A stretch of 32,000 nt of DNA from Horticoccus luteus. GTDB lineage: Bacteria > Verrucomicrobiota > Verrucomicrobiia > Opitutales > Opitutaceae. Under the pieces are notes generated by a model. The model was not told where the DNA came from. It ran no database searches and saw only the letters and a list, made by a program, of their open reading frames with translations. The stretch lies in contig NZ_CP080507.1 of the NCBI RefSeq assembly GCF_019464535.1, positions 2,340,001 to 2,372,000 of the forward strand, given 5' to 3'. Below are positions 7,925-24,867 of this stretch, piece after piece (within the stretch, counting starts at the first letter, position 1; every line of letters starts with the position of its first letter). The translations under genes were made by a program, and so were the position numbers.

Positions 7925-9427
7925 ATGAGCCTCCCGGTTCAAAAATTGTCATTCCTCGAAAAAGCCGGTTACAGCGCCGGCGATGCCGCCGCGAACTTCG
8001 TCTTCATGACGATGGTGCTGTTTCAGCTCAATTTTTATACCGACGTCTTCGGTCTCTCCGCCAGCGCCGCCGCCGCCATTCTCCTCTGGCCGCGCCTCTG
8101 GGATGCCATCTTCGATCCCATCGTCGGCGTTCTCGCCGACCGCACCAACACCCGTTGGGGCAAGTTTCGTCCGTGGGTCCTCTGGACCTCCGCGCCGTGG
8201 GCCGTCTGCATGGTCCTCGCCTACACCACGCCGCTCGGCTGGAGCACCGGCATGATGATCGCCTACGCCGGCATCACGAACACCGTCCTCATGACGCTGT
8301 ACTCCATGAACAACATGCCCTACTCCGCCCTTGGTGGCGTGATGACGGCCGACCTGGAGGAACGCACCAAACTCAACTCCTACCGCTTCGTCTCGGTTAA
8401 CATCGCGCAGTTCATCGTCGGCGGTTTGACGCTTCCGCTCGTCGCCAAATTCGCCGCCGGCCACGACCGGCAGCACGGCTGGCAGGTCACGATGACCATC
8501 TGGGCCGTGCTCTGCTTCGTCCTTTTCCTCGTCACGTTTTTCTCCACGCGCGAACGCGTGAAACCCGTCGCCGCCGTAAAGAGCTCCCCGAAGCAAGACT
8601 TCGCCGACCTGCTAAAAAACCGCCCGTGGCTCGCGCTCGTGGGCTACACGGTCTTTCACTTTGCGATGCTCGCCTACCGCGGCGGCGCGCACTACAACTA
8701 CTACCACCACTACGCGGACAAAGCGGCGATGTTCGACTTCGTCGCAAAGCTGGGCCTCACCACTTCGGCGACCACGCACCCTTCAGGCCTGCTCGAATTT
8801 CTCGGCTACGTGGTGCACAGCACGCGCGAGACCGCGAGCGATTCGAACGTCGCCGATGTGTTCAACAGCATCGTCAACATGGTCGGCACCGCCACGACCA
8901 TTCTCGGCATCATCCTCTGCGCCGGCCTCTCGGGTAAATTCGGCAAGAAGAACGTCGCGCTCGTCGGCTTCTCCCTCTCCGCCGTCAACGCGTTCCTCAT
9001 GTATTTGCTGCCGCCCACCGCGGCGACGGGCATGGTCTTGCTCGCCGTCACCGGCGCGGCCGTTTACTCGCCCACGATCGCCATCATGTGGGCGATGTAT
9101 GCCGATGCCGCCGACTATTCCGAATGGCAGACCGGACGGCGCTTCACCGGCATGGTTTTTGCCACGATCGGCTTCTCCCTCAAAGCCGGCCTCGCCCTCG
9201 GCTCCGCCACCTTCCTCTGGCTCATGGCCGGCCTGTGGAATTACGACACGAGAAATCCCTCCGCGCGCGACGCCATCGCCGGGTTTCGCGTTTCGAGCAG
9301 TCTCTTCGTCGGCCTCCTTTTTCTCGGCTGCGTGCTCTGTGTCGCCGCCTGCGGGCTCAACCGCCCCGTCACCTTGCAAATGGCCGCCGAACTCGCCGAC
9401 CGCCGCCAACGCGCCGCCCGCGCCTGA
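7925..9427 (+). CDS. Glycoside-pentoside-hexuronide (GPH):cation symporter family transporter (MFS)
   Basis: MSLPVQKLSFLEKAGYSAGDAAANFVFMTMVLFQLNFYTDVFGLSA..LWDAIFDPIVGVLADRTNTRWGKFRPW is the MelB/XylP/UidB-type N-terminal signature. The protein is multi-TM throughout. I place the start at the ATG at 7925. Confidence 0.85.
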   Translation: MSLPVQKLSFLEKAGYSAGDAAANFVFMTMVLFQLNFYTDVFGLSASAAAAILLWPRLWDAIFDPIVGVLADRTNTRWGKFRPWVLWTSAPWAVCMVLAYTTPLGWSTGMMIAYAGITNTVLMTLYSMNNMPYSALGGVMTADLEERTKLNSYRFVSVNIAQFIVGGLTLPLVAKFAAGHDRQHGWQVTMTIWAVLCFVLFLVTFFSTRERVKPVAAVKSSPKQDFADLLKNRPWLALVGYTVFHFAMLAYRGGAHYNYYHHYADKAAMFDFVAKLGLTTSATTHPSGLLEFLGYVVHSTRETASDSNVADVFNSIVNMVGTATTILGIILCAGLSGKFGKKNVALVGFSLSAVNAFLMYLLPPTAATGMVLLAVTGAAVYSPTIAIMWAMYADAADYSEWQTGRRFTGMVFATIGFSLKAGLALGSATFLWLMAGLWNYDTRNPSARDAIAGFRVSSSLFVGLLFLGCVLCVAACGLNRPVTLQMAAELADRRQRAARA

Positions 9428-9454
9428 CCGCGATCCCGCCGCGATCTTCTCCGC

Positions 9455-10219
9455 TCAAAATCCCACGCTCACGCCGCCATCCACCGGCAGCGTCACGCCC
9501 GTGACGAACTTCGCCGCCGGCGAAGCCAGATAGACCGCCGCCCAGCCGATATCCTCGGGCTCACCCATGTCGCCCATCGGCGTGCGGCCAAAAATCTTGG
9601 CTTTGCGCGCCGGATCGCCGTCAAGCGCCCGACGCGACATCTCCGTCGCAATCCAGCCGGGCGCGATGCAGTTCACCCGCACTCCGTGCCCTGCCAGTTC
9701 CGTCGAGTAACCTTTGACCAAGCCCACCATCGCCGACTTCGCCGCCGTGTAGGCGATCACCAGCGGAATGCCAAAAATCGACGCCATCGAGCCGGTGAAC
9801 AAAATCGAGCCGTGCCCGCGCGCCATCATGCCAGGCGCGACCGCCCGCGTGAGCGCATGCGCCCCGACGACATGCGTGTTCAGCACCGCCTGAAACTCCT
9901 CCGGCGTCGTGTCGACCGCGGGCTTCTTCAAATGGATGCCCGCGTTGTTGACGAGGCAAGTCACCGGCCCGACGTCGCGCGTCACCCGCTCCACCAATCC
10001 GGCCGCGCCGGCAAAATCCGTCACATCATGCGTGAACGCGTGCGCCCCGCCGCCGAGCGAGGCCACCGCCGCCTGCAACTCCGCCTCCCGCCGGCCCACC
10101 AGCACCACCTTTGCTCCGGCGCCGTGCATCGCCCGCGCCATCGCCAGCCCGATGCCCGTGCCGCCGCCCGTGATCAGCGCGATCTCGCCGCGCAAGGAAA
10201 ACGCTTCGTCGAATTTCAT
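9455..10219 (-). CDS. Short-chain dehydrogenase/reductase, by context a D-mannonate/fructuronate oxidoreductase (SDR-type UxuB) or KduD-like enzyme
   Basis: Rossmann motif [13 protein letters not shown], catalytic YTAAK, and NNAG. The ATG at 10219 overlaps the uxuA stop in an ATGA. The substrate assignment is inference from its neighbours. Confidence 0.8.
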
Positions 10220-11295
10220 TTGTGTCCCAGAGTCTGCAGCCCCGCCTTGAGATAGCCCATCGCAAACGCCATTCCTGCGTGCCACGGCGCCGCGCAGCTC
10301 ATCTGCGGCGCGTGGTCCGGGATGATCACGCCCTCGAAACCATTCTTCTGCAAAATCGCCAGCACGCGCATCACATCCACTTCGCCGTCGTCGATGAACG
10401 TCTCTTTGTAGGTCGGCACCTTGCCGCGCACATTGCGCAGATGCACATATCCGAGCCGCCCCTGCCGGCTGTAATGCTCGACCACTTCGTAGATGTCTCC
10501 CTCCGTCATCTCGGCGAGCGAACCCACGCAGAACTCCAACGTGTTCGCCGCACTCGGATTGAGATCGATCGCCTTCTGGTAGAGCGAAGGCTGATAGACC
10601 AGCCGCGGCTGGCCGCGTATGGACGGCATCGGCGGATCGTCCGGATGGAGCGCCAGTTTCACCCCCGCCTGCTCCGCCACAGGAAAAATGTCATCCGCGA
10701 AACGCTTGAAACGATCCCACAACTGTTCGGGCGTCGCCGCGGGAATCGTGCCGGAGCCCCGCGTCGGCGCCGCGGGATCCACGATCATGTTCCAAACCAA
10801 ACCATTCGGCATCGGCAGATCATACGGCCCTTCCATCCCCACCGCCGGGGCGCCGCCGCGCGCGTAGTTGCCTTTCGTCCGCCCCGCCACGCCCGCGATC
10901 GAGAAGTTGTAACCCATGATCGGGATGCCCGCCTCGCCCATGTGGCGGACGATCGTCTTCACATTTTCGATGTGCTGCGCCCGCCGCGGGCCATCGATCA
11001 AAATGTCGCCCCAGTGCGCCGGATCGAAATTCTCGATCGCCTCGAGTTTCAACCCTTCCGCCTCGACGTTGCGTCGCAACGCCACGAGTTCATCGGTCGT
11101 CCAAAGTTGGTCCGCATCACCCGCCAGACCCCAACCCCAGTCCGTGCCCGTCGGCTGATCGTCCGGCCCGGCATGCACGCCGCCGCGAAAATAGTCCACG
11201 AGATGCGCGATGACGTGCGTAGCTCCCGCCTGCTTCGCGAACGCGAAGTTTTCCGGCGTGAGCATGTGCTTGTAGAGACCTAACCCGAGTTTCAT
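10216..11295 (-). CDS. uxuA: Mannonate dehydratase
   Basis: It aligns from memory to E. coli UxuA blocks: [24 protein letters not shown] (compare [20 protein letters not shown]..PRIV), YVHLRNV (FTHLRS), [12 protein letters not shown] (GDVDMYEVVKAI) and IIPDHAPQM (MRPDHGHQM). Confidence 0.85.
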
Positions 11296-11411
11296 GCGAA
11301 GGAAGTAATCAAGGCCGGCCGCGACCGCTTTCGACCGGCCCGAGATAACTCCGTCTCATTCCGCCCGTGTCGATCAAGATCCGCTCGATCACCACGCCCG
11401 CCGTCATCCGC
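11171..11411. repeat. Left copy of a 241-bp direct duplication (uxuA 5' end, 13-bp spacer and the last 34 codons of the GH115 gene)
   Basis: It aligns without gaps to 19380..19620 at a constant offset of 8209. My alignment finds 5 mismatches, all in the uxuA-coding part. Confidence 0.95.
11309..11411 (-). pseudogene. Duplicated 3' fragment of the CE4-GH115 gene
   Basis: It encodes ..RMTAGVVIERILIDTGGMRRSYLGPVESGRGRP*, identical to the C-terminus of the intact gene at 19518.. Confidence 0.9.
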
Positions 11412-11584
11412 AAAACGTTCCTCAAAGCCTGCACCCGCCAGCCGACTTTCCTGGCATTTTCAAACAAGGTGCAAGCCAAGGCGGCTCGCAGGCCCTCGAC
11501 GGCAAACAGATCGCACCGATAGTTTCCCCGATCGATCAGATGATGCAACGCGCCGGAGTATTCGATGCGCAACCTTCGAACCAT
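11412..11584 (-). pseudogene. N-terminal roughly 57-codon remnant of a Y1 (IS200/RAYT-like) transposase, fused in frame to the GH115 3' fragment
   Basis: MVRRLRIEYSGALHHLIDRGNYRCDLFAVEGLRAALACTLFENARKVGWRVQA matches the conserved start of REP-associated/IS200-like Y1 transposases (PRxLRIEYPGAxYHVxxRGxxRxxIF..GWxVHAY). The HUH and Tyr motifs are absent. Confidence 0.7.
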
Positions 11585-11660
11585 GCATGACTCGACTCAC
11601 AGGCCGGGTGGCTCTCAAATAGAAAACCAACAAAACACGGCCAGTCCCCCTTGGCTTGAG
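11412..11660 (-). repeat. R1 composite repeat, copy 1 (leader plus the longest transposase remnant)
   Basis: It shares ccgatag.ttccccgatcgatcagatgatgcaacgcgccggagtattcgatgcgcaaccttcgaaccatgcatgactcgactcacaggccgg...ctctcaaa.agaaaaccaacaaaacacggccagtccc with copies at about 12566, 14495 and 18148. Confidence 0.9.
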
Positions 11661-11732
11661 GCCGTTGTGAGGTTAAGAACGAGGCTCGCGTTTCCGACCA
11701 CGTCGTTGCGCCCGGCGAGGGGCTCTCACGGC

Positions 11733-11770
11733 CAAACAAAACGCCGCATCCGGCAAGGCCGAAGCGGCGC
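11733..11770 (-). terminator. Intrinsic terminator after TA module 1
   Basis: The minus strand reads gcgccgcttcggccttgccggatgcggcg followed by ttttgtttgg, 10 nt after the toxin stop. Homologous hairpins follow the other two TA modules. Confidence 0.7.
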
Positions 11771-11779
11771 TTCAGCGGC

Positions 11780-12103
11780 TCAGGCGAAGTTGACGTTGCC
11801 GCACAGGCCGGATTCCCCGGCACGTTGCAGCAAATTCAGCATCTTGCCGCACTCGGCCTGCCGGGTGCGGCGGCGGATCAGGATGATCAGGCCCGGATGC
11901 TCGGGGTGTTCGGCCGCCAGGGACAGGAAGTCATCCCGGTTGCAAGTGACCGTGATCTGGCCGTGCGTCCGGGCGTAAGCGAAGGCCTCTGCGTCCGGGG
12001 TCGTGATCGGTAGCACGTCGCGTAGCACCGTCGCCGTGTGGCCCCAATGGCGCAGCAGCAGCGCGATTTCCTCCGGGATGTCCTGATCGAGGAAGAACGT
12101 CAC
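11780..12103 (-). CDS. DUF5615-like (PIN-like) putative toxin, TA module 1
   Basis: VTFFLDQDIPEEIALLLRHWGHTATVLRDV..TPDAEAFAYARTHGQITVTCNRDDF..HPGLIILIRR. A GTG start at 12103 overlaps the antitoxin stop in a GTGA. Confidence 0.7.
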   Translation of the reverse strand: MTFFLDQDIPEEIALLLRHWGHTATVLRDVLPITTPDAEAFAYARTHGQITVTCNRDDFLSLAAEHPEHPGLIILIRRRTRQAECGKMLNLLQRAGESGLCGNVNFA

Positions 12104-12354
12104 ACCGGACCCTCGCTCATCTGCTGCGCGACCAAGGCATCGATCTCGACGCGGTGATCCTCGTAGTAGGACAAGCACTCGTAAACCTGCGCGCGGGTGA
12201 CCCCAGGGAAGCTGCGGCACACCTCATCAATACTCGCGCCGTTGACGAGGAGGCCCACGACGTCATGCACGCCGATGCGGGTGCCCTCAATGATGGTGCG
12301 CCCCGAGCGAACGCCGGGGATTTGGGTCAGGTAGCGGTAAGTCGTGGCAGGCAT
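12100..12354 (-). CDS. DUF433-type putative antitoxin, TA module 1
   Basis: MPATTYRYLTQIPGVRSGRTIIEGTRIGVHDVVGLLVNGASIDEVCRSFPGVTRAQVYECLSYYEDH is a DUF433 pattern. I place the start at the ATG at 12354, because the listed 12504 start lies in repeat-derived sequence. Confidence 0.75.
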   Translation of the reverse strand: MPATTYRYLTQIPGVRSGRTIIEGTRIGVHDVVGLLVNGASIDEVCRSFPGVTRAQVYECLSYYEDHRVEIDALVAQQMSEGPV

Positions 12355-12419
12355 GAGGGACATCATGACGAGGAAGTCGCTTCCGGCAATGCCGTATCCG
12401 GCCGCGCCAACTCGGCTCC

Positions 12420-12711
12420 GGGATATGCCAAGGGAAACTGGCCGTGTTTTGTTAGTCGATGTGTTTTCGGGCATGGTGGAGGTAGCCGCGCAGGGCGGCG
12501 GCATGGCGGACCCAGTTGGTTGGAGTGCCGAAGCAGCATGCCCGCCGCCGCGAAAATACGCCGCACCGATAGATTCCCCGATCGATCAGATGATGCAACG
12601 CGCCGGAGTATTCGATGCGCAACCTTCGAACCATGCATGACTCGACTCACAGGCCGGATCGCTCTCAAACAGAAAACCAACAAAACACGGCCAGTCCCCT
12701 CTTCGCTCGGC
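12420..12711 (-). repeat. R1 composite repeat, copy 2 (short form bounded by an inverted 17-nt core)
   Basis: ACTGGCCGTGTTTTGTT lies at 12437..12453 and its exact reverse complement at 12679..12695. Between them is the 25-codon transposase remnant MVRRLRIEYSGALHHLIDRGIYRC. Confidence 0.85.
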
Positions 12712-13345
12712 GCCGTGGGCCGCAGCTCGGCCACCCTCGATCCAAGGGTCCTCGTAGGCAACTGGTCGATCGTAGAGCTTATCGAAATACGCGCCGATCT
12801 TCCCTGACGCCCAAGAGACAGCGTATGCCGTGGCCCCAGCAATCATTCCATTCTTGAAGGCATCGCCGAGAGAACCGCCGTTCTGTACAGTCCCTGAGAA
12901 CGCTGAAGCGGATGAATAGCCCACAAAGTAGGCCGCGTTACTGCCGATGGCCCGCCTACGGCGGCAAACTCGGCAGCCACGAACGCTTGAACAGAACCTC
13001 GCGTGCCGCCCTGACCCGACGGGATATTGGAAAGTGTGGAGCCATACGGTTGGGCCGATTGTGCAGGTTATTGCGGCGTTCTATGGGTATCCTTACGTGT
13101 CGGCGGGGGGCGGGTATTCGACGGGCGAAGGTGAGCGGGTTGTTGTTGACGTAGCTGTAGCGGTTGAAGCTCTGACAGTCCTCCCTGTCGTCCACGACCG
13201 GGTCCGCGCTGAGGAACCTGCCCAGCGTAGGGTCATAGACCCGGCCGTTCATGTGGATTGCCAGCTCCGGCGGGTTCGTAGCGCGCGCACCGTAGGAGCA
13301 GGACGCGGTTGCCGGCAGCGGAAGCGGGAAGCCCGGCGCGGGTTT
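12712..13345 (-). pseudogene. Degraded orphan Rhs-type C-terminal cassette (core end plus Gly-rich region, frameshifted, internally inverted, 3'-truncated by R1 copy 2)
   Basis: [47 protein letters not shown] parallels the intact copy at 16.8 kb. [61 protein letters not shown] (12712..12924) parallels aa about 135-205 of the intact copy. The reading frame changes between the segments. Confidence 0.8.
13013..13126 (+). other. Inverted segment of about 114 bp inside the degraded Rhs-CT pseudogene
   Basis: The plus strand encodes [36 protein letters not shown]. This is homologous to [37 protein letters not shown] of the intact gene. Both flanks of the pseudogene are encoded on the minus strand. 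Confidence 0.8.
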
Positions 13346-13539
13346 CGCCGACGTTGGGAGGCGCCCGGGCGTGAGATGGCGGCGAGCGCGCGAGGGATCG
13401 ACCAAGTCAAGGAACGGGAAGCGCCGCCAGACGCGCAGCATTGGCGTTTACCGTGTGTTTTCCCTTCGATGAGGGTGAGACTAGGGCTCGCGAGTCCGGC
13501 CGCGTCGTGCGCTCGGCGAGCGGCTCCGAGCCGCCAATG

Positions 13540-13577
13540 CAAAACGCCGCCGCTGGCACGCCCGCAAACGGCGTTCC
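13540..13577 (-). terminator. Probable (degenerate) intrinsic terminator after TA module 2
   Basis: The minus strand reads aacgccgtttgcgggcgtgccagcggcggcg followed by ttttgcattgg. It is positionally homologous to the terminators at 11733 and 17078. Confidence 0.45.
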
Positions 13578-13602: not shown

Positions 13603-13932
13603 TCAGCGAATTTCCACCAGCCGCGTGCCCTGCCCCAGGTGCGCCAAGATCTGCGGCACGCGCGGGATGAACCAGGCCCGCAGCGCCGCGTTGGACGTGT
13701 TGCCCACGCGCAACCACACGACACACGGCCCGGTTTCGGTCGCCTGCACCCGCAGCGCAAAGTCCTCGTCCTTGGTCACGCTTACACAACCGCTGGCCTC
13801 GGCGTGCCGTCAGATCGCGCCGTCGACGGCCCCGCGCAGTCCGATCTCGCGCACCGCTTGCGCCTCGCAACCGGCTTCGGCGAGCCAGCGCGCAAGCGCC
13901 GGAGGCAACTGGGCATCGACCAAAAACGTCAC
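13603..13932 (-). pseudogene. DUF5615-like toxin gene with an in-frame TGA (TA module 2)
   Basis: [83 protein letters not shown].. The stop lies at 13810..13812, where a Trp (TGG) codon would fit. The GTG at 13932 overlaps the antitoxin stop in a GTGA. Confidence 0.7.
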
Positions 13933-14156
13933 CGGCTGGCCACGAGCACGGGGTGATCGAGCTGGGCGGCGGCGTATTCCAGGCTCGCCTTGATGTCGTC
14001 CGCTTCAAGGTCGGGATAGTCCGCGAGGATGTCCGCTTCGGGCACACCGGCCGCAACGAGGTCGAGCACGTCTTTCACCCGGATGCGCATCCCGCGGATG
14101 CACGGGCGTCCGCCGCACTGGTTCGGATTGAAGGTGATGCGCTCCATATAATTCAT
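13929..14156 (-). CDS. DUF433-type putative antitoxin, TA module 2
   Basis: [63 protein letters not shown] is a DUF433 pattern. Confidence 0.8.
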
Positions 14157-14214
14157 GCCGGCATGTTAGGCGCGGATCCCGCCTTCCGCAAGACTCGTGT
14201 CTGGCGGCGCGAGC

Positions 14215-14430
14215 CGGGTGCGTCCGGGTCTGGACTTCCTTCAACTTGCGGATCGAGACCTGCGCGTAAATCTGCGTCGTCTGCAAGCACGCGTGCCCGA
14301 ACTGCTCCTGGACGTGGCGGATGTCGGCGCCGTGCTCCAGCATGAGCGTCGCGCAGGTGTGGCGGAACAGGTGGCCACTGCCGGACTTGCCCACGCCGGA
14401 GCGCGTGACGCAGCCGGTGACGGGCGGCTG
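14215..14430 (-). pseudogene. C-terminal roughly 70-codon fragment of a XerC/D-like tyrosine recombinase (copy 1)
   Basis: [67 protein letters not shown] covers box II (HxxR .. H .. catalytic Y). No N-terminal part is present. Upstream it joins directly to the transposase remnant. Confidence 0.8.
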
Positions 14431-14638
14431 CATGGCTGATCCGCGGGTGTTTGAGTGCCGAAGCAGCATGCGCGCCGCAGCGAAAATGAATCACGCCGAG
14501 GGATTCCCGATCGGTCAGACGGTGCAACGCGCTGGAGTATTCGATGCGCAATCTTCGAACTGTGCATAACTCGACTCATAGGCCGGATCGCTCTCAAATA
14601 GAAAACCAACAAAGCACGGCCGGTCCCCCTTGGCTCGA
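14232..14638 (-). repeat. R1 composite repeat, copy 3 (long form: leader, transposase remnant and integrase 3' remnant)
   Basis: It is collinear with 17884..18292 over about 400 bp, with scattered substitutions. Confidence 0.9.
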
Positions 14639-14647
14639 CCCCCGTAT

Positions 14648-14695
14648 GTGTTACCTATCGCTCCGGTCACAGTGTCACCTATCACTCCGGATCGA
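14648..14695. repeat. Tandem 24-bp direct repeat at a cassette boundary
   Basis: gtgttacctatcgctccggtcaca and gtgtcacctatcactccggatcga match at 20 of 24 positions. They lie between the R1 copy 3 end and the stop of the 125-aa lipoprotein gene. Confidence 0.8.
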
Positions 14696-14713
14696 ACCTG
14701 CTCCCGACCCGCG

Positions 14714-15091
14714 TTATGGAGAATTAGGCACAAACCTTACTCCGTTCTCTCGTATTTCAACTACAATATCGCTGGTACCCAACGCTTTTTTTTGGTCCAT
14801 TATGTCCGAACTTCCGACGACAACTCGATGCTGTCCAAATTCAAATATGTATCGTTTAGCTCTCGGAGCAAACCATTGCCTCACAAGCTTAGCGTGAGAC
14901 GAAAGCGTCACCGTCATTTGCTTGTTTTCATCCTGTATAATCGTCACACTGACAGCTTTATCCGTCTCATTCGAGATCACGACCGATTTGCTTAATGCTA
15001 TAATTTTTCCACAGCCAATAGTCAACGTCACTATTAAGACACACGTAATTACGGCAGGAAAGCGACCGAGGTAAATTCTATTCTTTTTCAT
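14714..15091 (-). CDS. Small lipoprotein, second immunity candidate or orphan immunity
   Basis: Lipobox ..VLIVTLTIGC. The gene is AT-rich, co-directional with the upstream gene, and overlaps it by 14 nt. Confidence 0.6.
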   Translation of the reverse strand: MKKNRIYLGRFPAVITCVLIVTLTIGCGKIIALSKSVVISNETDKAVSVTIIQDENKQMTVTLSSHAKLVRQWFAPRAKRYIFEFGQHRVVVGSSDIMDQKKALGTSDIVVEIRENGVRFVPNSP

Positions 15092-15506
15092 GAAAGAAAC
15101 TATACGTTGCGGGCCCAGTAACCTTAACCAGAGTCCCGCCTAACGTCGATACCGAATGAACGCCATCATCATATATATTAACGAGGCCCACCGATTCCTT
15201 GACTGCTACCTTCCGCTCGTAAACCGTCTCCTTCCCTGACTCGTATAGTACTATTCTGACATCAGGCCGGAGTGGCGATTCTGTCACCTTGACTGTTAAG
15301 ACATAATGCCCTCCGTCCCAATTTGCATGTAAAGCCCATCCACGTGGCAAGTTCAAAACGGCCTTATCAACTATCCATGATGGGGCCGATGATGTAATCA
15401 CGATTCGCCTATCACTATTCTTAGCATTCCAAAACAGAAAACCCATGGCTATAGCAATTACGGAGACTATTAATACCATGATTAAAATCGATTCTTTACG
15501 TTTCAT
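15078..15506 (-). CDS. Membrane-anchored small protein, cognate immunity candidate
   Basis: Its start overlaps the toxin stop in an ATGA. N-terminal TM anchor [20 protein letters not shown]. Composition is AT-rich: 23 of 60 bases are G/C at 15001..15060. Confidence 0.65.
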
Positions 15507-16819
15507 ATTTGACGCATTTTATATACTTCCTCATAGCGCCCACCGCCTACAGGTTTTATCATGATCGGATCCTCGGCTCTCTTCAGTAAATAAATGCTCC
15601 TATATGCCTTAAAAGTCTCGGTTCCAACATTTATCGTATGCACGGGATTCGCGCGAAAGGAAAATGGCTCACCTCGTTCGGTAATTGTTTGATAATACGT
15701 GCGCTTCACCTCCACGAGTTGGTCGTAGCGAGAAAAACCGCTTCGTATCATAAGGAGGTTGCCCACGCCTTCCATTAATTTATCAATGATTGAAAATACT
15801 CTGGCCAGTCTCCCTAGATTTCTGGCGGCTGCAAGCTGCTCTAGTGTTTCTAATGTGGCTCCTGTGACCTCGTCCGGCATCTTCTCGATTCTCAAATCCT
15901 CACCTTCGTGAATATACCAGTCGGAAACTGGAGTCACTTCGTCCACGTGAAACATGTGGCTCGAAATGGCTTCGGCATTGAGCAGATGCTGAAACGCCGC
16001 CGTGATCGCGCCGTTGGCGAATTTCCCTCCACCAAGGAGTGACGCCGTCCCGCCCGCAATCGCGGCAATCGTCGTGCGGACCGCAACGCCCCAGGAGTCT
16101 TTCAAAGACTTAAAGCGCATCGAAATGCTTCCGGCAATCGATCCGGCAAAAGAGCCGTAGAAACCACTGCCAAAGCTTCCGCCTTGCGCAACTGACGCCG
16201 CACCACCGACCACACCGTGAGCTAACGCCCGCCCCGCTTCAATCCACGGATCCTTAAAAGTGACGGGGCCATGGTATTCCAAATCAAAAAACTCGCCGAT
16301 CTTTCCTGATGCCCACGACACGGCGTAAGCGGTGGCCCCCGCAATCATCCCGTTTTTGAAGGCATCCCCGATACTGCCGCCGTTCAGTAACGTTCCGGAA
16401 AAGGCCGACGCCGAGGAATAACCGACATAAAATCCAACCGTTGAGTTGAATAAACCGGCGCCGGCTGCACCACCCAGCCCCGCGGCGAGGCCTTGAGCCG
16501 CGCCAACGTTGCCATTAATAGTGTAACCGACTGAAGCCGATGACGCGGCACTAATTGCTTCGCTGGCAGAGTATGACAAGCCCGCAGCAGACGATAAACC
16601 GGCAGTGTAGTAAGCCGCTGCGATCTGCACTACTTGCCCTATCCCTTCCGTCCATGCCTTCCAATAACCTGTAGGGTCAGTGAAGGTGAGCGGGTTGTTA
16701 CTGACATAGCTGTAGCGGTTGAAGCTCTGGCTATCCCCCGCGTCGTCCACGACCGCGTCAGCACTCAGGAACCGCCCCAGCCCTGGGTCGAATATCCGGC
16801 CGTTCATGTGAACGGCCAA
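15503..16819 (-). CDS. Orphan Rhs-family C-terminal toxin cassette (core end, Gly/Ala/Ser-rich membrane-like region and an unknown AT-rich toxin tip)
   Basis: [50 protein letters not shown] is the end of the RHS repeat-associated core (compare RYYDPxLGRFxSxDP...NxYxYVxNNPxxxxDPxG). No YD repeats lie upstream. The listed start is a TTG, the first ATG is at 16807, and I see no Shine-Dalgarno sequence. The frame is open upstream to a stop near 16935. Confidence 0.8.
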
Positions 16820-17077
16820 GTCTGGTGCCGTCGTAGGCGGTGAAGCGTAGCGGCAGGACGCGGTTTTTCCCGGCGGGAGCGGCGGGCCGGGCGCGAGTTT
16901 TCGAGAAGAGCGGCTTGGGGGCGGCGGCTATGGCCGCGCACAGCAAACCAAGTCAAGGAACGGGCGGCGCGTCAGCGCTCGCGAGGATGGCCGTTAAAGC
17001 GTTTTCTTCCTTCGGTTGAGGTCGAGACAGGGCTCGCGACTCCGGCCGCGTCATTGCGCCCGGCGAGCGGCTTCAGG

Positions 17078-17118
17078 CCAAAGCAAAACGCCGCACCCGG
17101 CAAGGCCGGAAGTGGCGT
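17078..17118 (-). terminator. Intrinsic terminator after TA module 3
   Basis: The minus strand reads acgccacttccggccttgccgggtgcggcgt followed by tttgctttgg, 33 nt after the PIN gene stop. Confidence 0.7.
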
Positions 17119-17151
17119 CAATCGAAGCGGCTAAAGAAGGAAGCGACTCGC

Positions 17152-17571
17152 TCAGAGCACGCCGTGGGCGCGCTGCTCCAGCAAAAACTCGCCGGGCGTG
17201 GCGAGGCGCAGCCCGTAAACCTCTCGGCCGAGTTTTTCGTGGAAGTCGCCCTCGTCGAGCGTGAGCAGCCAGTCGGCACGCGTGGCCAGGGCCGTGATGA
17301 CAACGGGCCGATCTTTCGCCTTCGGGAAGACCAGCGGCTGGTCGAGCGCGACGCTCACTTGCACGAAGCGCATCAGCGGCGCGAGTTGCTTCCAACCGCG
17401 CGCGGCCGTCGCGCCCACTTTCGCCAGATTGCGGCGCGTCTCCTCCTCGCAGTAGTAGGAGCTGACGAGCTCCCAGCCCTGCGTTGCGGCCTGCGTGATG
17501 ACGAAGCGCGACGCGCCTCTCGCCGATCCCGCCGCGGCGAACAGGACACTCGTGTCGAGGAAGAGCCTCAC
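17152..17571 (-). CDS. PIN-domain toxin (VapC-like), TA module 3
   Basis: VRLFLDTSVLFAAAGS..EETRRNL..LLTLDEGDF has PIN-type acidic residues. The GTG at 17571 overlaps the antitoxin stop in a GTGA. Confidence 0.75.
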   Translation of the reverse strand: MRLFLDTSVLFAAAGSARGASRFVITQAATQGWELVSSYYCEEETRRNLAKVGATAARGWKQLAPLMRFVQVSVALDQPLVFPKAKDRPVVITALATRADWLLTLDEGDFHEKLGREVYGLRLATPGEFLLEQRAHGVL

Positions 17572-17807
17572 TTTTTCTTCGCGGCGCGGAACGCCTTCAT
17601 GTCGGCCTCGTCGCGTGCGATCCAAGCGCGGATTTGCGCCTTCGGGATGTCGCGCACGGGCACGGCGGTGGCCGGGTGCAGGAACAGGCCGCCTTCGCGT
17701 TCCTCGACGAGGAGCATTGGGTTGCGGAGCTTATCGAGTCCCATTTTCCGCCGCAGTTCGGGCGGCAACGTCAGGCTGCCGCGTTTGGAGAGTGGAAGTG
17801 TGGTCAT
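17568..17807 (-). CDS. AbrB/SpoVT-fold antitoxin (VapB-like), TA module 3
   Basis: MTTLPLSKRGSLTLPPELRRKMGL is a looped-hinge-helix type N-terminus. I prefer the start at 17807 over the listed 17822, because 17808..17828 is a perfect palindrome. Confidence 0.7.
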   Translation of the reverse strand: MTTLPLSKRGSLTLPPELRRKMGLDKLRNPMLLVEEREGGLFLHPATAVPVRDIPKAQIRAWIARDEADMKAFRAAKKK

Positions 17808-17835
17808 GCGGCAATGCTGCATTGCCGCAATGCGG
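17808..17835 (-). promoter_or_regulatory. Candidate operator of TA module 3
   Basis: gcggcaatgc-t-gcattgccgc is a perfect 10-bp inverted repeat abutting the antitoxin ATG. A third overlapping half-site ccgcaatgcgg follows. Confidence 0.5.
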
Positions 17836-17868
17836 TTCGCAAGCCTCGCGCGGCGATAATTTGGCCCC

Positions 17869-18084
17869 CGGATGCGTCGCGGCGTGGACTTCCTTCAACT
17901 TGCGAATCGAGACCTGCGCGTAAATCTGCGTAGTCGCGAGCGAGGCATGCCCAAGCTGCTCGTGGACGTGGCGGATGTCAGCGCCATGCTCCAGCATGAG
18001 CGTCGCGCAGGTCTGGCGGAACAGGTGGCAACTGCCAGACTTGCCCACGCCGGAGCGCGCGACGCAGCCGGTGACGGGCGGCTG
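17869..18084 (-). pseudogene. C-terminal fragment of a XerC/D-like tyrosine recombinase (copy 2)
   Basis: [67 protein letters not shown]. It has the same 5' junction ([18 protein letters not shown]) as copy 1. Confidence 0.8.
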
Positions 18085-18292
18085 CAAGGCTGATCCGCGG
18101 GTGTTTGAGTGCCGAAGGAGCATGCGCGCCGCCGCGAAAATAAGTCACGCCGATAGATTTCCCGATCGATCAGACGGTGCAACGCGCCGGGGTATTCGAT
18201 GCGCAACCTTGGAGCCATGCATGACTCCACTCACAAGCCCGTCGGCTCTCAAACAGAAAACCAAAAAACACGGCCACTCCCTCTTGGCTCGG
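17884..18292 (-). repeat. R1 composite repeat, copy 4 (long form)
   Basis: It is collinear with 14232..14638 and carries the transposase remnant PRLRIEYPGALHRLIDREIYRRDLF. An extra 28-nt partial copy of the same motif follows at about 18298..18325. Confidence 0.9.
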
Positions 18293-18385
18293 CCCCCCCC
18301 CGATCGATCGGATGGCGCAACGCGTTGTTCTTCATTTCTGGCAAGCGGCATCCCCGAGGCTTTGGCTGGCTCGTGCGGGGTCACC

Positions 18386-18907
18386 TTATCCCTGCTTTCG
18401 AGACCACAAATCCACTTCTCCGGAGATGTGCTTACTGAAGTCCACCTTTACGCGAGCGCCCCACGGCGGATCGGCAAGCTCAATCGCATTAACTATCCAC
18501 TCCAATATCTTTTTACGCTCTTCTATCAGACGTGCATCATCACGAACTTTTCGCGACCTCGACTCAGCAATTTTATTAATCTCATCCAAAGCCAAATCCA
18601 CCTTTCCTGAAGCATAATGCGCTGCTGCCAAATGCATCGTATCGACCATAATCGCTATTGCTATTCGGTCATCGTCATCATGCCTAGCCAATCTTGATTC
18701 CAACACCCCTTTCCCGTTTTCAAGCAAGCTAACTGCTTCGGAAGCCGATCTCGCACGCATCGCCTCGTCGATAATATTATCGTTATATGCGATCCAAAGC
18801 GGACGAGCATCTAGTCTCGTGACCCCGTTCTCGTCGCGCTTTGCGCACCCTGCCGTCATGAATTGAATAAGCAAAGTCAGTATAATTATCTTTATTATTG
18901 TATTCAT
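18386..18907 (-). CDS. Lipoprotein, immunity candidate for the truncated toxin upstream
   Basis: Lipobox LIQFMTAGC. The gene is AT-rich, and its start overlaps the upstream reading frame's stop in an ATGA. Confidence 0.6.
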   Translation of the reverse strand: MNTIIKIIILTLLIQFMTAGCAKRDENGVTRLDARPLWIAYNDNIIDEAMRARSASEAVSLLENGKGVLESRLARHDDDDRIAIAIMVDTMHLAAAHYASGKVDLALDEINKIAESRSRKVRDDARLIEERKKILEWIVNAIELADPPWGARVKVDFSKHISGEVDLWSRKQG

Positions 18908-19233
18908 CTCTCGAGAGCCAATGACGACGCCCAGTACCTCATTTTAAGTACTCGCTGCGCTCGATTTACAGCATCGATGCGATTTAGAAAAACAGCATTT
19001 CCGTCGTAATCGCGCACGGGGGTATTAACAAATCTTACATGATCTACATTCACTTCATTATTCTTTCGCGTGACAATCTCAAACTCAAGGGTCGTGTAAG
19101 CACGCCAAGGGCCGGATGCCTTGTTTAGCATCCCAGCCCTTGTATTTGCAACTGAAAAAAACCACCAAACCTCACGTCTTGAATATTGACTGCCGCACGT
19201 CGAGCAAGGCGCTAGGCGCGTTGCCGCTCTGCG
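18904..19233 (-). pseudogene. Probable C-terminal toxin-tip remnant, 5'-truncated
   Basis: The frame is open from 19233 (preceded by a TAA at 19234..19236), while the listed ATG is at 19131. Composition is AT-rich. It is translationally coupled to the downstream lipoprotein gene. Upstream it abuts R1 copy 5 with no Rhs core present. Confidence 0.45.
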
Positions 19234-19261
19234 TTACCGTCCTTCAGTAGGGCCCTCGTAA

Positions 19262-19403
19262 GGATATACCAAGGGAGGACTGGCCGTGTTTTGTTAGTCG
19301 AAGTGTTTTCGGGCATGGTGGAGATATTGGCACAGGGCGGCTGCATGGCGAATCCCTAGTTGGTTGGGGTGCCGAAGCAGCATGCCCGCCGCCGCGAAAA
19401 TAG
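19262..19403 (-). repeat. R1 composite repeat, copy 5 (short form, truncated at the junction with uxuA-derived sequence)
   Basis: ggatataccaagggaggactggccgtgttttgttagtcgaagtgttttcgggcatggtgga...gccgaagcagcatgcccgccgccgcgaaaata parallels 12421..12563 of copy 2. Confidence 0.85.
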
Positions 19404-19620
19404 TCCACGAGATGCGCGATGACGTGTGAAGCTCCTGCCTGCTTCGCGAACGCGAAGTTTTCCGGCGTGAGCATGTGCTTGTAGAGACCTAAACCGAGTT
19501 TCATGCGAAGGAAGTAATCAAGGCCGGCCGCGACCGCTTTCGACCGGCCCGAGATAACTCCGTCTCATTCCGCCCGTGTCGATCAAGATCCGCTCGATCA
19601 CCACGCCCGCCGTCATCCGC
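19380..19620. repeat. Right copy of the 241-bp direct duplication
   Basis: See 11171..11411. Its first 24 nt could derive from either uxuA or R1, because the two share that sequence. Confidence 0.95.
19404..19504 (-). pseudogene. Duplicated 5' fragment of uxuA (first roughly 34-40 codons)
   Basis: It encodes [36 protein letters not shown].. and then runs into R1-derived sequence. Confidence 0.9.
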
Positions 19621-22600
19621 CAGATTTTCAAGACGTGCTCACCGGGACGATCGACTTGGATGCGCGCGGTCACGCGCTTCACGCCGTCGCCCACCGCCTG
19701 CTCCCATTCGTGATCGGTCGCCGTGAGCCCCAGTTTGACCGGCGCCGGCGGCTGATCATCGAGCGACACGGCGAATTCCCGCGGTTGCCCCGGTTGAAAG
19801 TCGAACGTCGGCGCGCACTGCAGTTCGACCACAAATTCGCCCGTGGAACGGAAGAAGACGTCGTAGTCCAAACGCGCTCCCTTTCCCAGTTCGTCCGCCG
19901 ACGCCGTCACCGGCCATGTCGTCACCCCGCCCAACATTCGTCCAAAGTCAGGCAACACTTTCCACGTCGCGCCATTTGCTCCCTGCGCGCGAGAAAAGTT
20001 CGGCGCCTCAATCGCCACATGGCCGTCGAGTTCCACGAAGCCGTGCCCCGTCACAGGACGGCAGTCAATCGGCACCTTCACCACGATCGGCGGCTCTCCG
20101 CCGTCGCCGCGCACCGTCAACGTGGCCTCCTGCACGCCAGGCTTCAACGCCGACCAATCCACCGACACCGCCACGCGCACATCCGGACCGAGGTCGCCCT
20201 TCGTCACGCTGACCTTCAGCCACGGCGCATTCGCCTCGATCGAAAAATGCACCGGCGCGTGTCCGCGGTTGAAGACATCAATCCATCGCCAGGCCGGCCC
20301 CCAGGGACTCAACGGCGGAAGTTTCGCCTCCGCCGGAATCGGATAGTCGCCCGGCCGCGCCGCCGGATCGCCTTCAACGGCGACACCCAGTTCGCCGCGC
20401 TCCGGCACCTGCAACTCGGTGACCGCGGGCATCGCGTTGCGAATCGGTTGTTGCCACGACGTGTAGCCCAGATGCGTCTGATCCATCATGTGACGCCACT
20501 TGCCGTCGAGCATCGCGTCCCACTGCGCCGTCAGCGCGGCATCCTCAGCGAACAGCGCCCTCGCCCGTGCGGCCTCCGCATTCGTCGAAGCGCGCCCTTG
20601 CACCGCATGGAGGCGGTTCCGGCCCGCCGTGATGACGAGCTCATTGACGATTCGGCACGCTTCGATCGGCTGCTGCACCAACTGGAAAAACGCCGCCCGA
20701 GCCTCCGCCGGCAGCTCCTTGCTCAAAGCTCTCGCGCGCGCCTCCAAACCGCGCCACTCCGCCAGCACGCGTTCCGCCTCGTCGTAGTTCACGAGACTAA
20801 ACGTATCCGGTGCGAGCATCTCCGGCTTCCGCCGGCCATTGAGCTTCGTGTAACCGTTGATCAAATCCGCCACCTCATCGGCCGCCGTCGCGCCGAACTG
20901 CCGCGCCGCCCAGGCGCGCGCATAGTCGCCAAGCTGGTGGTAGCCGATCGCCTCCGGCCGCCACGCATACGTCAGGAAGAATTCGATCGGAAACTCCATC
21001 GGTTTCAGGTCCCCGACATTGACGATCCAAATCCGATCGGCGCCGTAACGCCACGCCAGGTGCATTTGCTCCCAAATCTTGGTGAGCGGAATCGTGTTCA
21101 ACCATTTGTAGTTCCGCGGATCGCCCACGTAATCGAAGTGATAGTAAACTCCCGCCCCACCGCGGCGCGTCCGTTCCGCTGCGGTCGGCAGACGGCGAAG
21201 ATTGCCCCAATTGTCGTCGCACCAAAGCAGCGTGACATCGTCCGGCACGCGCATCCCGTGTTCGTAGTAGGCCTGCACTTCTTTATATAACGCCCAGAGC
21301 TGCGGGACCTCGGCGGGCGGACGTCCCATCGTGTCGCGAATGATTTTGCGCTGATCCGCCACGATCTGCTCCAACAACGCAACGTTCGTCCCTTCCGTCA
21401 TCGCCTCGTCGCCGTCCCCGCGCATGCCGATCGTGATAATGCTCTCGAAGTCTCGGTTGCGCCGCAGTCCGTCGCTCCAGAATTTGCGCAACGTCTCGCC
21501 GTTGGTCGCGTAATTCCACGCACCGTGGCCGTGGCGTTTCCACTCCTGCTGCGCCCGCAGCATCGGCTCGTGGTGCGACGTGCCCATGACGATGCCATAC
21601 TCGTCGGCGAGGCGCGCGTTGTCGGGATCATCCTCATTAAACGCGTTGTTCCACATCGCCGGCCACAGGTAATTCGCGCGTAACCGCAGCAGCAGTTCGA
21701 ATACGTGCGCGTAGAACGCGTGGTTCAATCCGCCAAACTTCTCCTTCGCCCACCCCGTCAGCGCCGGCGCCTCGTCGTTCAGAAATATGCCCCGGTATTT
21801 CACGGTCGGACCCGGCTCCACGATGCGTTCCGCCGAAAGGAAAATCTCGTCCTGCTGCGCCACCGGCACGTCGGCCCACCACGCCCACGGCGAGACGCCG
21901 ATCCGTCGCGAAATCTCGTAGAGTCCATAAATCGTGCCGCGTTTGTCGCTGCCCGCGATCACGAGCGCTCGTTCCACGCCCGGCAGCGGCCGGTCGACGA
22001 CTTCAATCTGAAACGCCTCCCACCGCCCGCGAATGCCCGACACGTCGAGCTTCCCATGCGCGACCAGCTCATCGATCAGCGCACTTCGTCCCACCGTGCC
22101 TGCCAGCACCACGGTCTTCGCCGCCGGCAGAGTTGTCGTCAAAACCGGCGTCTTTCCCGTCGCGCGGCCGATGTCTGTGCGCAGATCGCCGGCGGCCCGA
22201 CGCACGCCTGCCCAATCGCCTTCCGCGACCACCAACGGAGTCGCGACGCCCCGTTCCACCAGCGAAAAACGCTTCGCCGCCGTCGTTGAAGAACGCGCGA
22301 CCGGGCCCGCCGTCAACGCCGCCGCCAATCCGGAAAACGTGAAGAACCCGCAACCTTGCCGACGTAGTTCCGCGATGATCGCCGGCAATTGCGCGCGCGT
22401 TTCCGCCCGCCATTCGTGAAAGAGAATCACCGAACCATCGCGAACGTCCGTCGTTGCCCGACGATAAATCTCCGCCGCAGTCACCGCTCGATCGTAGTCC
22501 TGTGAAACGACTAGGTGTCTCGGCACATAAACCGAGAGTCCCGCCCTGGCCGCCGTCGCGCGCACACGATCATCCGCCTCCAGAAACGGCGGCCAATACC

Positions 22601-22976
22601 AACGCGGCGCACTCCCCAGCGTCGACGTCAGTAATTTCTGCGCGCCGATGATTTCCCGGTCCAGCGCCGCATCGTTGAGCGCGCCCGGATGCGAGTGCGT
22701 CTGCGAGTGATTGACGATTTCGCAGTCCTGCGCGGCGATCGCGCGCGCTTCGGCCGGGTTTTCCTGCACGCTGTCGCCGACCAGCGAGAATGTCGCCGCC
22801 ACTTTCTCTTTCGCCAACAGCGCCAGCAACGGTCCGGCATCCTCGGGCCGCGGACCGTCGTCAAAGACCAATGCGACGCGCTTGAGCGGCGCGGCCGCCA
22901 GGGACGCGAGGCCGCACCACGCCAAACCAAGCAGCACCGCGAACACTCGGCCCCATGAACGCCACCGCGCCGTCAT
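19518..22976 (-). CDS. Bifunctional CE4 polysaccharide deacetylase / GH115 xylan alpha-glucuronidase
   Basis: N-terminal NodB motifs VALVFDDGP and NHSQTHSHP. GH115-type blocks YRGIFLNDEAP, NYLWPAMWNN and GTSHHEPM (recalled from memory). Signal peptide MTARWRSWGRVFAVLLGLAWCGLASLAAAP. The ATG at 22976 overlaps the GH10 stop in an ATGA. Confidence 0.8.
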   Translation of the reverse strand: MTARWRSWGRVFAVLLGLAWCGLASLAAAPLKRVALVFDDGPRPEDAGPLLALLAKEKVAATFSLVGDSVQENPAEARAIAAQDCEIVNHSQTHSHPGALNDAALDREIIGAQKLLTSTLGSAPRWYWPPFLEADDRVRATAARAGLSVYVPRHLVVSQDYDRAVTAAEIYRRATTDVRDGSVILFHEWRAETRAQLPAIIAELRRQGCGFFTFSGLAAALTAGPVARSSTTAAKRFSLVERGVATPLVVAEGDWAGVRRAAGDLRTDIGRATGKTPVLTTTLPAAKTVVLAGTVGRSALIDELVAHGKLDVSGIRGRWEAFQIEVVDRPLPGVERALVIAGSDKRGTIYGLYEISRRIGVSPWAWWADVPVAQQDEIFLSAERIVEPGPTVKYRGIFLNDEAPALTGWAKEKFGGLNHAFYAHVFELLLRLRANYLWPAMWNNAFNEDDPDNARLADEYGIVMGTSHHEPMLRAQQEWKRHGHGAWNYATNGETLRKFWSDGLRRNRDFESIITIGMRGDGDEAMTEGTNVALLEQIVADQRKIIRDTMGRPPAEVPQLWALYKEVQAYYEHGMRVPDDVTLLWCDDNWGNLRRLPTAAERTRRGGAGVYYHFDYVGDPRNYKWLNTIPLTKIWEQMHLAWRYGADRIWIVNVGDLKPMEFPIEFFLTYAWRPEAIGYHQLGDYARAWAARQFGATAADEVADLINGYTKLNGRRKPEMLAPDTFSLVNYDEAERVLAEWRGLEARARALSKELPAEARAAFFQLVQQPIEACRIVNELVITAGRNRLHAVQGRASTNAEAARARALFAEDAALTAQWDAMLDGKWRHMMDQTHLGYTSWQQPIRNAMPAVTELQVPERGELGVAVEGDPAARPGDYPIPAEAKLPPLSPWGPAWRWIDVFNRGHAPVHFSIEANAPWLKVSVTKGDLGPDVRVAVSVDWSALKPGVQEATLTVRGDGGEPPIVVKVPIDCRPVTGHGFVELDGHVAIEAPNFSRAQGANGATWKVLPDFGRMLGGVTTWPVTASADELGKGARLDYDVFFRSTGEFVVELQCAPTFDFQPGQPREFAVSLDDQPPAPVKLGLTATDHEWEQAVGDGVKRVTARIQVDRPGEHVLKIWRMTAGVVIERILIDTGGMRRSYLGPVESGRGRP

Positions 22977-24781: not shown

Positions 24782-24867
24782 CGGTAAGTAATATTCGTGG
24801 GGGCGCGCGCGACTGACGGAATGCGGCGAGCAAAGATTGCCAGGATTTCGAGGGCAAGCCCGTCGCC

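Follow-up and report, generated by a model that had tools for sequence, protein, structure and literature searches.

A probable orphan Rhs C-terminal toxin cassette with a very rare tip and a candidate immunity gene in a repeat-bounded array of Horticoccus luteus

The 32,000-nucleotide stretch of Horticoccus luteus DNA analyzed here (contig NZ_CP080507.1, positions 2,340,001 to 2,372,000; hereafter the window) carries on its minus strand a 438-codon frame that we interpret as an orphan cassette, the detached C-terminal end of a polymorphic toxin of Opitutaceae that is exported by Sec and built from SpvB, FG-GAP, TcdB and RHS domains in the manner of the TcB-TcC "cocoon". For the whole package, with its mechanism and its origin, we estimate a probability of around 0.6. 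The identity of the frame as an orphan and its pairing with an immunity gene are highly probable when taken by themselves, and a periplasmic target of the toxin is the favored option. The cassette is an unusual example of a well-known bacterial weapon, and its toxin-immunity pair is a very rare member of the polymorphic Rhs class, not a categorically new one.

In the list of open reading frames (ORFs) the frame extends without interruption from a TTG at position 16819 to the stop codon at 15503-15505. It is 100% identical to the H. luteus hypothetical protein K0B96_09800 (Opitutaceae, Verrucomicrobiota), for which NCBI places the start at the ATG of codon 5, giving 434 amino acids (aa). Homologues of the constant part reach E-values as low as 1e-62 and those of the tip E-values of 1e-18 to 1e-91, which confirms that the frame is not a chance ORF. 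Its first 52 residues (16664..16819, minus strand) were assigned with TIGR03696 and tblastn to the end of an Rhs core including the DPxG self-cleavage motif. Residues 3-51 align with positions 31-75 of the 76-position TIGR03696 Rhs_assc_core model (E 7e-13), the core end reads ..FTDPTGYW, a DPTG variant of DPxG, and weak PDB matches were obtained to the core end of TcC/YenC2.

No RHS/YD repeat was found by Pfam in the frame, and neither a YD-repeat shell nor an N-terminal secretion/trafficking domain was detected in it by Pfam or tblastn; the frame is therefore an orphan and not a full-length, deliverable Rhs toxin. Nor does the window contain a full-length rhs gene, as judged from its ORFs and from tblastn. 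With the proteins P0121, P0052 and P0018 as queries, Rhs homology in the window was restricted to 16813-15512, 13312-13133 and 12909-12700, that of the studied frame beginning at 16813. The 25 nucleotides (nt) preceding the ATG (GACGGCACCAGACTTGGCCGTTCAC) are devoid of a Shine-Dalgarno-like motif, and a search for sigma-70-like promoters gave zero matches across 14500-18400. A first-pass annotation, made from the letters of the window, had described an intact orphan Rhs-CT cassette lacking YD repeats and a credible ribosome binding site; the open frame, its TIGR03696 core end, the absence of a shell from the window and the negative searches bear out this description. The same annotation had missed that no parent rhs lies nearby.

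The DPxG junction is followed by a Gly/Ala/Ser-rich helical pre-toxin module (aa 53-281; 15977..16663, minus strand), delineated with homologues, PF04830 and an AlphaFold2 (AF2) model. Residues 53-283 consist of 18% Gly, 19.5% Ala and 11.7% Ser. The database search returned 374 significant matches, most of which cover about 64-67% of the query, that is, the core end and the Gly-rich region. A scan of one genome per species identified at least 562 genomic loci that carry the module, in Verrucomicrobiota, Bacteroidota, Gamma- and Alphaproteobacteria, Campylobacterota, Fibrobacteria and others. In 100 homologues the module terminates with GGKFANGA-[VI]-[TS]-[GA]-A-F-x-[HY]-[LM]-[FL]-N; the terminal Asn is kept in 98 of these sequences, and relatedness is lost within about five residues past it, the tips beyond having a median length of 171 aa. 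Since this Asn is residue 281 in the window copy, the tip comprises aa 282-438. Many genomes hold two or three cassettes with the pre-toxin module in tandem (loci L020, L022, L023, L037, L042, L054, L067 and L068).

PF04830 (DUF637; C-terminal half) was matched by 21 of 30 aligned segments at E < 0.01. Its gathering score of 26.6 bits is passed by P0012 (27.5 bits), the other individually scored proteins reaching 19.5-25.8 bits; PF04829 (PT-VENN) gave no Pfam match in the window frame or in the individually scored homologues. In the papers searched, DUF637 serves to mark the pre-toxin region of type V (CdiA) toxins (PMC3482391, PMC9765294, PMC9846239). The AF2 model, computed from a 30-sequence alignment, shows six helices over aa 126-286 with confidence values (pLDDT) of 73-88, and Foldseek found no significant match of the module model in the PDB. 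In 23 of 30 homologues a strongly hydrophobic, transmembrane-like helix directly follows DPxG, on account of which membrane insertion by the module is plausible at the family level. By sequence comparison, the Gly-rich region is a widespread, conserved, predicted-helical pre-toxin domain, distantly DUF637-like, and not a linker. The four full-length carriers inspected, which belong to four phyla, all combine SpvB, FG-GAP and RHS, three of them together with TcdB_toxin_midN, while PAAR or VgrG was found in none of the four; P0121 is a fifth full-length carrier of the same architecture. Judged by these domains, the shell of the module carriers is of the TcB-TcC type. In homologues, the tips that follow the module include Tlde1/YkuD, VanY/M15, M35, M91, DUF4329, Ntox44 and DUF4225 domains, among which Tlde1/YkuD and VanY/M15 are peptidoglycan-acting.

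The variable toxin tip (aa 282-438; 15506..15976, minus strand; low G+C, 46.5%) was characterized by profile searches. Pfam gave no match at E ≤ 10 for the two members tried, NCBIfam gave none for the tip, and the best E-value of a PDB profile search was 0.28, which is not significant. These results support a tip outside all described toxin families (Pfam including Ntox/Tox, NCBIfam and PDB sequence matches), in agreement with the first reading, which could not assign it to any family. Among the 120 best whole-frame homologues, P0003 alone has the same tip, with 36% identity across 154 aa. When 1.84 billion representative proteins were searched exhaustively with an HMMER profile, four members emerged: the query, P0003 (a partial Rhs), P0121 and P0122, the last a fragment of 230 aa in a Tara Oceans assembly. 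A word-index search with the tip profile returned P0122 only, and scans of plasmid, phage and JGI metagenome contigs added zero further members. A literature search for the junction motif yielded nothing relevant, nor did a toxin-discovery preprint. P0121 is a complete Rhs protein of 2925 aa with a signal peptide, Ig-like (He_PIG) domains, SpvB, FG-GAP and RHS repeats and the tip at its C-terminus; the window frame is collinear with it.

The four-sequence tip alignment shows conservation of D-E-[VI]-T-P-x-S-x-W-Y, Y-[DE]-Q, R, G-x-E-x-F and S, the conserved polar residues being D/E, S, K, Y, Q and R. Its invariant positions D18, E19, Y90, Q92, R98 and E126 correspond to D299 and E300 (the DE of HVDEVTP), Y371, Q373, R379 and E407 in ORF numbering. 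No Cys or His is conserved in this alignment, and on these grounds the tip is most likely a hydrolase that depends on neither a thiol nor a metal. A colicin M-like lipid II phosphatase was also considered, because the tip contains RYDQx5R and is accompanied by an anchored immunity candidate. Compared with the colicin M signature DxYDx5HR, RYDQx5R is present, and the Asp at -3 and the His are missing; alignment of the tip to the colicin M catalytic domain by hhalign, for which the ColM sequence was verified against the PDB, gave a probability of 0.05%, and the candidate was rejected.

The gene that follows the toxin, imm1 (15078..15506, minus strand), encodes 142 aa with an N-terminal signal anchor or signal peptide and is the cognate immunity candidate by synteny. 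As first described, its ATG (15506-15504) overlaps the toxin TGA as ATGA and its N-terminal segment is hydrophobic (Kyte-Doolittle mean of 3.29 over 15 aa). At four of the four tip loci an imm1 homologue lies directly 3′ of the toxin, its start coinciding with the toxin stop or lying no more than a few bases from it. The window protein is 26% identical to the homologue at locus L001 (E 5e-11), and the family shares the motifs P-x-W...L-P-x-G and LGG. In all four proteins the N-terminus is basic and leads into a hydrophobic stretch; the L001 homologue has the lipobox LVAC, and the window protein has an A-I-A motif as a possible signal-peptidase site. We regard imm1 as the cognate immunity gene because a homologue with an anchor, signal peptide or lipobox follows the toxin at all four loci. 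Since the basic residues precede the hydrophobic segment in each case, an N-in, C-out topology is predicted; the immunity domain is thus expected outside the cytoplasm, and the toxin would act there. A profile of the four sequences gave weak PDB rows for flavivirus NS3 protease (E 0.008-0.07 over about 100 residues), which are probably noise, although they could hint at a small beta-barrel fold.

The status of the next gene is different. imm2 (14714..15091, minus strand; 125 aa, G+C 41.8%), taken from the ORF list and from its composition, overlaps imm1 by 14 nt and is an ORFan: no homologue was detected in the database search, and no counterpart follows the immunity gene at L002, the P0121 locus and the sole related locus that extends far enough. 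At its N-terminus a charged and a hydrophobic region precede ...LTIGC, which is plausible as a lipobox although it deviates from the canonical form, and with this reservation the earlier assignment as a lipoprotein is plausible. The proposal of two immunity genes holds for imm1; as an immunity gene imm2 is unsupported by the comparisons.

Base composition sets the tip and the two small genes apart. The G+C content is 58.2% in the core end and Gly-rich region, 46.5% in the tip, 44.3% in imm1, 41.8% in imm2 and 63-67% in the flanking genes; in 300-nt windows the 3′ end of the tip falls to 41.7-42%, and the flanks peak at 69-70% in some. At third codon positions (GC3) the values are 42-48% in the module versus 78-82% in the flanking genes. 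The direction of the drop reported by the first-pass annotation is correct, its figures of 40% versus 70% being slightly generous. The data support a compositionally foreign tip. At all four loci the tip and the immunity gene are lower in G+C than the remaining gene, which supports horizontal exchange.

Rhs/TcC shells are established to hold the C-terminal region inside and to sever it after DPxG. The shell of the full-length relatives would likewise enclose the C-terminal region and cleave past DPxG, and the released piece would consist of the Gly/Ala-rich helical pre-toxin module and a toxin of about 155 aa. The module may aid the passage of the toxin to or across the envelope of the target; its near-invariant terminal Asn would mark the toxin-swap junction and possibly the point of toxin release. 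The toxin itself would work in the periplasm or on the envelope and not in the cytoplasm, since each of the four known pairs includes a co-conserved immunity protein that is predicted to be exported or anchored in the membrane. In H. luteus the cassette has neither shell nor export signal and is therefore undeliverable as it stands. Its present value would most likely lie in the immunity gene, the toxin being retained as a silent spare, and the cassette would have been acquired with one module of a recombinase-associated array that inserted in the uxuA 5′ end; displacement from a resident rhs would not be its origin.

An insert of about 8.2 kb between a GH115 gene and uxuA, placed in the uxuA 5′ end, contains the cassette. 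The last 37 GH115 codons and the first 41 or so uxuA codons are present twice, as 250 nt of 96% identity at the insert ends. A dead copy of the uxuA start (19244-19504, minus strand) runs into the repeat, the live uxuA being located at 10216-11295. A 23-nt core (TATTTTCGCGGCGGCGNGCATGC, minus strand), of which 0 copies are expected by chance, is present in five copies of the same orientation, at 11171, 12536, 14466, 18120 and 19380; one of the copies is part of the uxuA coding sequence. It lies, again in one orientation, in five related boundary repeats (11146-11656, 12427-12706, 14214-14635, 17868-18289 and 19279-19629) whose arms are common to the core copies: one arm consists of an end resembling a repetitive extragenic palindrome (REP) and the first 36 or so codons of a Y1_Tnp-like gene, the other either of that REP-like end in inverted orientation or of the last 100 or so codons of a tyrosine integrase.

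The upstream boundary of the cassette, R4 (17868..18289, minus strand), is composed of a Y1_Tnp-like 5′ remnant, the core (18120-18142) and a C-terminal integrase fragment (ORF 17731-18123), and the downstream boundary, R3 (14214..14635, minus strand), has the same structure with its core at 14466-14488. ORF 14005-14469 matches PF00589 (E 5e-13). The R4 integrase fragment is 60% identical (E 3e-26) to the intact integrase beside the P0121 rhs, and the N-terminal Y1_Tnp remnant matches the intact Y1_Tnp beside the same gene (E 5e-8). At that locus (L002; 101-1102 and 12170-13662) an intact tyrosine integrase lies upstream, and a helix-turn-helix gene and an intact Y1_Tnp of 329 aa lie downstream. 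The recombinases of the window are two C-terminal integrase fragments, with no intact recombinase gene. The array repeat had no exact matches in metagenome contigs, and the 23-nt core is absent from all related loci examined. The copy at 12427-12706, of about 280 bp, has inverted ends of about 30 nt (GCCAAGGGAAACTGGCCGTGTTTTGTTAGT / ACCAACAAAACACGGCCAGTCCCC) and the first 36 or so codons of a Y1_Tnp gene that is similar to REP-associated tyrosine transposase (RAYT) genes; it resembles a decayed REP/RAYT unit or a miniature inverted-repeat transposable element.

Four modules make up the array, an arrangement that had escaped the first-pass annotation together with its repeats, toxin-antitoxin pairs and recombinase remnants. 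Module 1 is a DUF433/DUF5615 pair, module 2 a truncated DUF433/DUF5615 pair with a frameshifted, repeat-truncated Rhs-CT, module 3 a PIN_3/AbrB-like pair with the intact cassette under study, and module 4 a 75-aa fragment with a 173-aa lipoprotein, both of low G+C. The three toxin-antitoxin pairs (11780-12504, 13603-14156 and 17152-17822, minus strand) are thus two of the DUF433/DUF5615 type, the second with a truncated DUF5615, and one of the PIN_3 type. The last, upstream of the cassette, comprises a PIN_3 toxin (17152-17625, minus strand; PF13470, E 2.8e-6) and an overlapping AbrB/MazE-like antitoxin candidate (17568-17822, minus strand) with a weak MazE_antitoxin match. Between this pair and the cassette lies a non-Rhs leader of about 300 nt (16820..17118, minus strand) with the direct repeats D4, D8, D9 and D10. 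It is common to the degraded cassette (13345-13574; also 11683-11771), with 71-79% conservation, and contains a terminator-like hairpin and T-run at 17102-17089, just past the PIN gene; termination, a leader function or use as a recombination handle are conceivable roles.

The degraded cassette is a second Rhs-CT of the same subfamily (12586-13441, minus strand), which is frameshifted after NNNPLTFA and cut by a boundary repeat inside its pre-toxin module, no tip or immunity gene being left. A third low-G+C module (46%; 18386-19131, minus strand) directly past a boundary repeat contains a 75-aa ORF overlapping the 173-aa lipoprotein gene (..FMTAGC); neither ORF has a meaningful Pfam match, and the pair is probably a truncated toxin tip with an intact immunity gene. 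Reading upstream of the studied cassette on the minus strand, the toxin-antitoxin pair, the integrase fragment and this small cassette are followed by the GH115 and GH10 genes. From its sequence features, the array looks like the remains of recombinase-borne Rhs elements that accumulated at one site, by a mechanism that we infer; its boundary repeats and duplicated ends suggest that small elements were added in tandem. It interrupts an apparent xylan/glucuronate utilization region (GH115 with a deacetylase domain, GH10, UxuA, SDR, LacI and MFS_2), and a Big_9/cadherin-like surface protein of 1518 aa and a PEP-CTERM protein are encoded on its other side; the xylan/glucuronate and surface-protein regions occupy 192-6505, 6571-11295 and 19518-31972.

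The state of this array gives weight to a different account, in which the toxin frame is an unexpressed relic, the only selected function is that of imm1, perhaps with imm2, against neighbors armed with the full-length toxin, and the toxin-antitoxin pairs stabilize the array. Neither a shell or an export signal nor a promoter-like site or a Shine-Dalgarno-like motif was found for the cassette, and a terminator-like hairpin separates it from the PIN gene. The neighboring modules are decayed, as the frameshifted and repeat-cut Rhs-CT at 12586-13441 illustrates, and the module at 18386-19131 retains an intact lipoprotein gene beside its 75-aa fragment. No close full-length partner was detected among the H. 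luteus database matches, and the array contains three toxin-antitoxin pairs. However, the 438-codon frame is fully open, including 157 codons at 46% G+C, and collinear with P0121, which argues for a recent arrival or for selection on the toxin too. We consider this account a serious contender with slightly less than even odds, and it overlaps the orphan-cassette interpretation more than it excludes it.

A membrane-depolarizing pore of the glycine-zipper type, formed by the Gly-rich region together with the tip and blocked at the membrane by the anchored small proteins, is unlikely. The Gly-rich region does contain 49% Gly, Ala and Ser, and the transmembrane-like helix past DPxG is present in 23 of 30 homologues. 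One homologue has a Gly-zipper_YMGG match, and the low-confidence tip model shows long beta-hairpins, its best Foldseek rows being pore formers. However, GxxxG occurs 10 times compared with 7.4 ± 2.3 in shuffled sequence, which is no enrichment, the highest 19-aa hydrophobicity is 1.34, the window protein has no Gly-zipper Pfam match, and neither the window copy of the module nor the tip contains a transmembrane-grade segment. The glycine zipper, as a specific motif, was therefore rejected. The pore-former rows of Foldseek have E ≥ 0.7 on a low-confidence model and are not significant. Furthermore, the Gly-rich module is constant before many unrelated toxins, including the enzymes Tlde1, VanY/M15, M35 and M91, and is therefore not the toxic principle.

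A cytoplasmic target, for instance nucleic acids as for most Rhs toxins, is more improbable still. The N-terminus of imm1 would then tether a domain that faces the cytoplasm. About half of the ORFs downstream of other module-bearing toxins look cytoplasmic, and the helix-then-strands layout of the low-confidence tip model may be compatible with small RNase folds. Against this, the positive charges before the hydrophobic segment in four of four immunity homologues predict N-in, C-out, one homologue carries the lipobox LVAC, and the tip matched no nuclease family in the Pfam and PDB profile searches. Least probable of all is an autonomous gene, translated from the conserved HMNGR Met and acting without the Rhs shell: although this Met, the annotated start, is the called start in about 70 of 120 database homologues and a stop codon precedes it by 5-8 codons in five Alteromonadaceae orphans (loci L028, L036, L042, L046 and L062), it is equally conserved within full-length genes, the 5′ limits of orphans range from 5 to 94 codons, others keeping 28-94 codons of the core, and the frame has no Shine-Dalgarno-like motif, export signal or promoter-like site.

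Several observations nevertheless count against the interpretation as an orphan, Sec-type toxin cassette with an envelope target. At codon 22 (16756-16758) the window copy reads SADAVV where more than 90% of the homologues have SADPxV (Pro22 to Ala). The similarity of the pre-toxin module to DUF637 is mostly under the Pfam threshold, the window copy has no match to PF04830 at E ≤ 0.1, and by hydrophobicity it lacks the transmembrane-grade helix. About half of 25 ORFs downstream of module-bearing genes look exported, and the general rule that the pre-toxin module means a periplasmic target was not upheld. The immunity assignment is drawn from synteny and topology. The AF2 model of the tip is poor (pLDDT 52.7), and Foldseek with this low-confidence model gave nothing significant (best E 0.73). 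Finally, P0052, the only other match in H. luteus, is a truncated protein of 639 aa, about 41% identical in the shared region. The altered codon 22 adjoins conserved Asp residues of the Rhs core end.

Orphan rhs-CT/rhsI modules that result from C-terminal displacement have been described in Enterobacteria and Snodgrassella (PMC5727410, citing Jackson 2009 and Koskiniemi 2014). The H. luteus cassette shares with them a short Rhs core up to DPxG, a variable toxin, a tightly linked immunity gene, the absence of a secretion domain, a G+C content below that of the host and the potential to act as a recombination spare. Unlike them, it is not downstream of a full-length rhs, it has a conserved pre-toxin module of 230 aa between DPxG and the toxin, and it is bounded by 23-nt-core repeats and recombinase remnants and accompanied by a toxin-antitoxin pair. 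The parents also differ, being of the Sec/SpvB (TcB-TcC) type here and not of the PAAR/type VI secretion system type.

The full-length relatives of the cassette have SpvB, FG-GAP, TcdB_toxin_midN and RHS in common with the TcB-TcC cocoon of ABC (Tc) toxins (TcdB2-TccC3, YenC2), to whose TcC/YenC2 core end the window frame is weakly matched. Proteins of this group are established to cleave themselves at the core end. In contrast to Tc toxins, no TcA partner was seen in L002, the helical pre-toxin module is an addition, and an immunity gene is adjacent, which argues for a bacterial target. The module is placed like the pre-toxin region of CdiA (DUF637 and PT-VENN), helical, directly N-terminal to the toxin and with a conserved terminal Asn; in CdiA a predicted alpha-helical pre-toxin domain precedes VENN, whose last Asn performs the toxin-releasing cleavage (PMC13625785). 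The module differs from that of CdiA in its ending, L[F/L]N versus VENN, in the lack of a PT-VENN match and in its carrier, an Rhs protein and not a TpsA filament. By analogy, the Asn of L[F/L]N may be a cleavage residue comparable to that of VENN.

The pairing of a small toxin with a small immunity protein that has a signal anchor or lipobox is also that of Tlde1/Tldi1, and Tlde1 and VanY/M15 domains occupy the tip position past the module in homologues. Colicin M and Cmi likewise combine a periplasm-acting toxin with an exported or anchored immunity protein. The tip, unlike Tlde1 and colicin M, has no conserved Cys or His and is related to neither in sequence. Recombinase-associated arrays of orphan immunity and toxin genes are known from the recombinase-associated acquired interbacterial defense (rAID) systems of Bacteroidales and from integron-like arrays. 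The H. luteus array has the same serial modules, repeated site in one orientation, toxin remnants with intact immunity genes, toxin-antitoxin pairs and tyrosine-recombinase sequences; it differs in that the window has only C-terminal recombinase fragments and in that the repeated site lies within the Y1_Tnp-like remnant and uxuA codons.

A more far-reaching proposal joins these comparisons. The module would be an unrecognized, self-contained device for envelope translocation and release, related to the CdiA pre-toxin domain, which lets Sec-secreted Rhs cocoons of the TcB-TcC type intoxicate bacteria without a type VI apparatus or TcA channel; the tip would be the first representative of a novel enzyme class active in the periplasm, and the array a recombinase-driven cassette store. 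As a joint claim we hold this to be speculative and on balance doubtful.

If the orphan-cassette interpretation is true, the tip and imm1 constitute a new envelope-acting antibacterial toxin-immunity family, which, with four members, would be a modest addition to the catalogue. The array shows that Rhs cassettes may be collected by a route other than displacement from a resident rhs. The more general point is the pre-toxin module, which is widespread, lies at the exact site of toxin exchange, is confined to SpvB/TcdB/Rhs proteins with a signal peptide and is most worth following. Its near-invariant terminal Asn offers a testable handle on the way in which such proteins deliver their cargo to bacteria.

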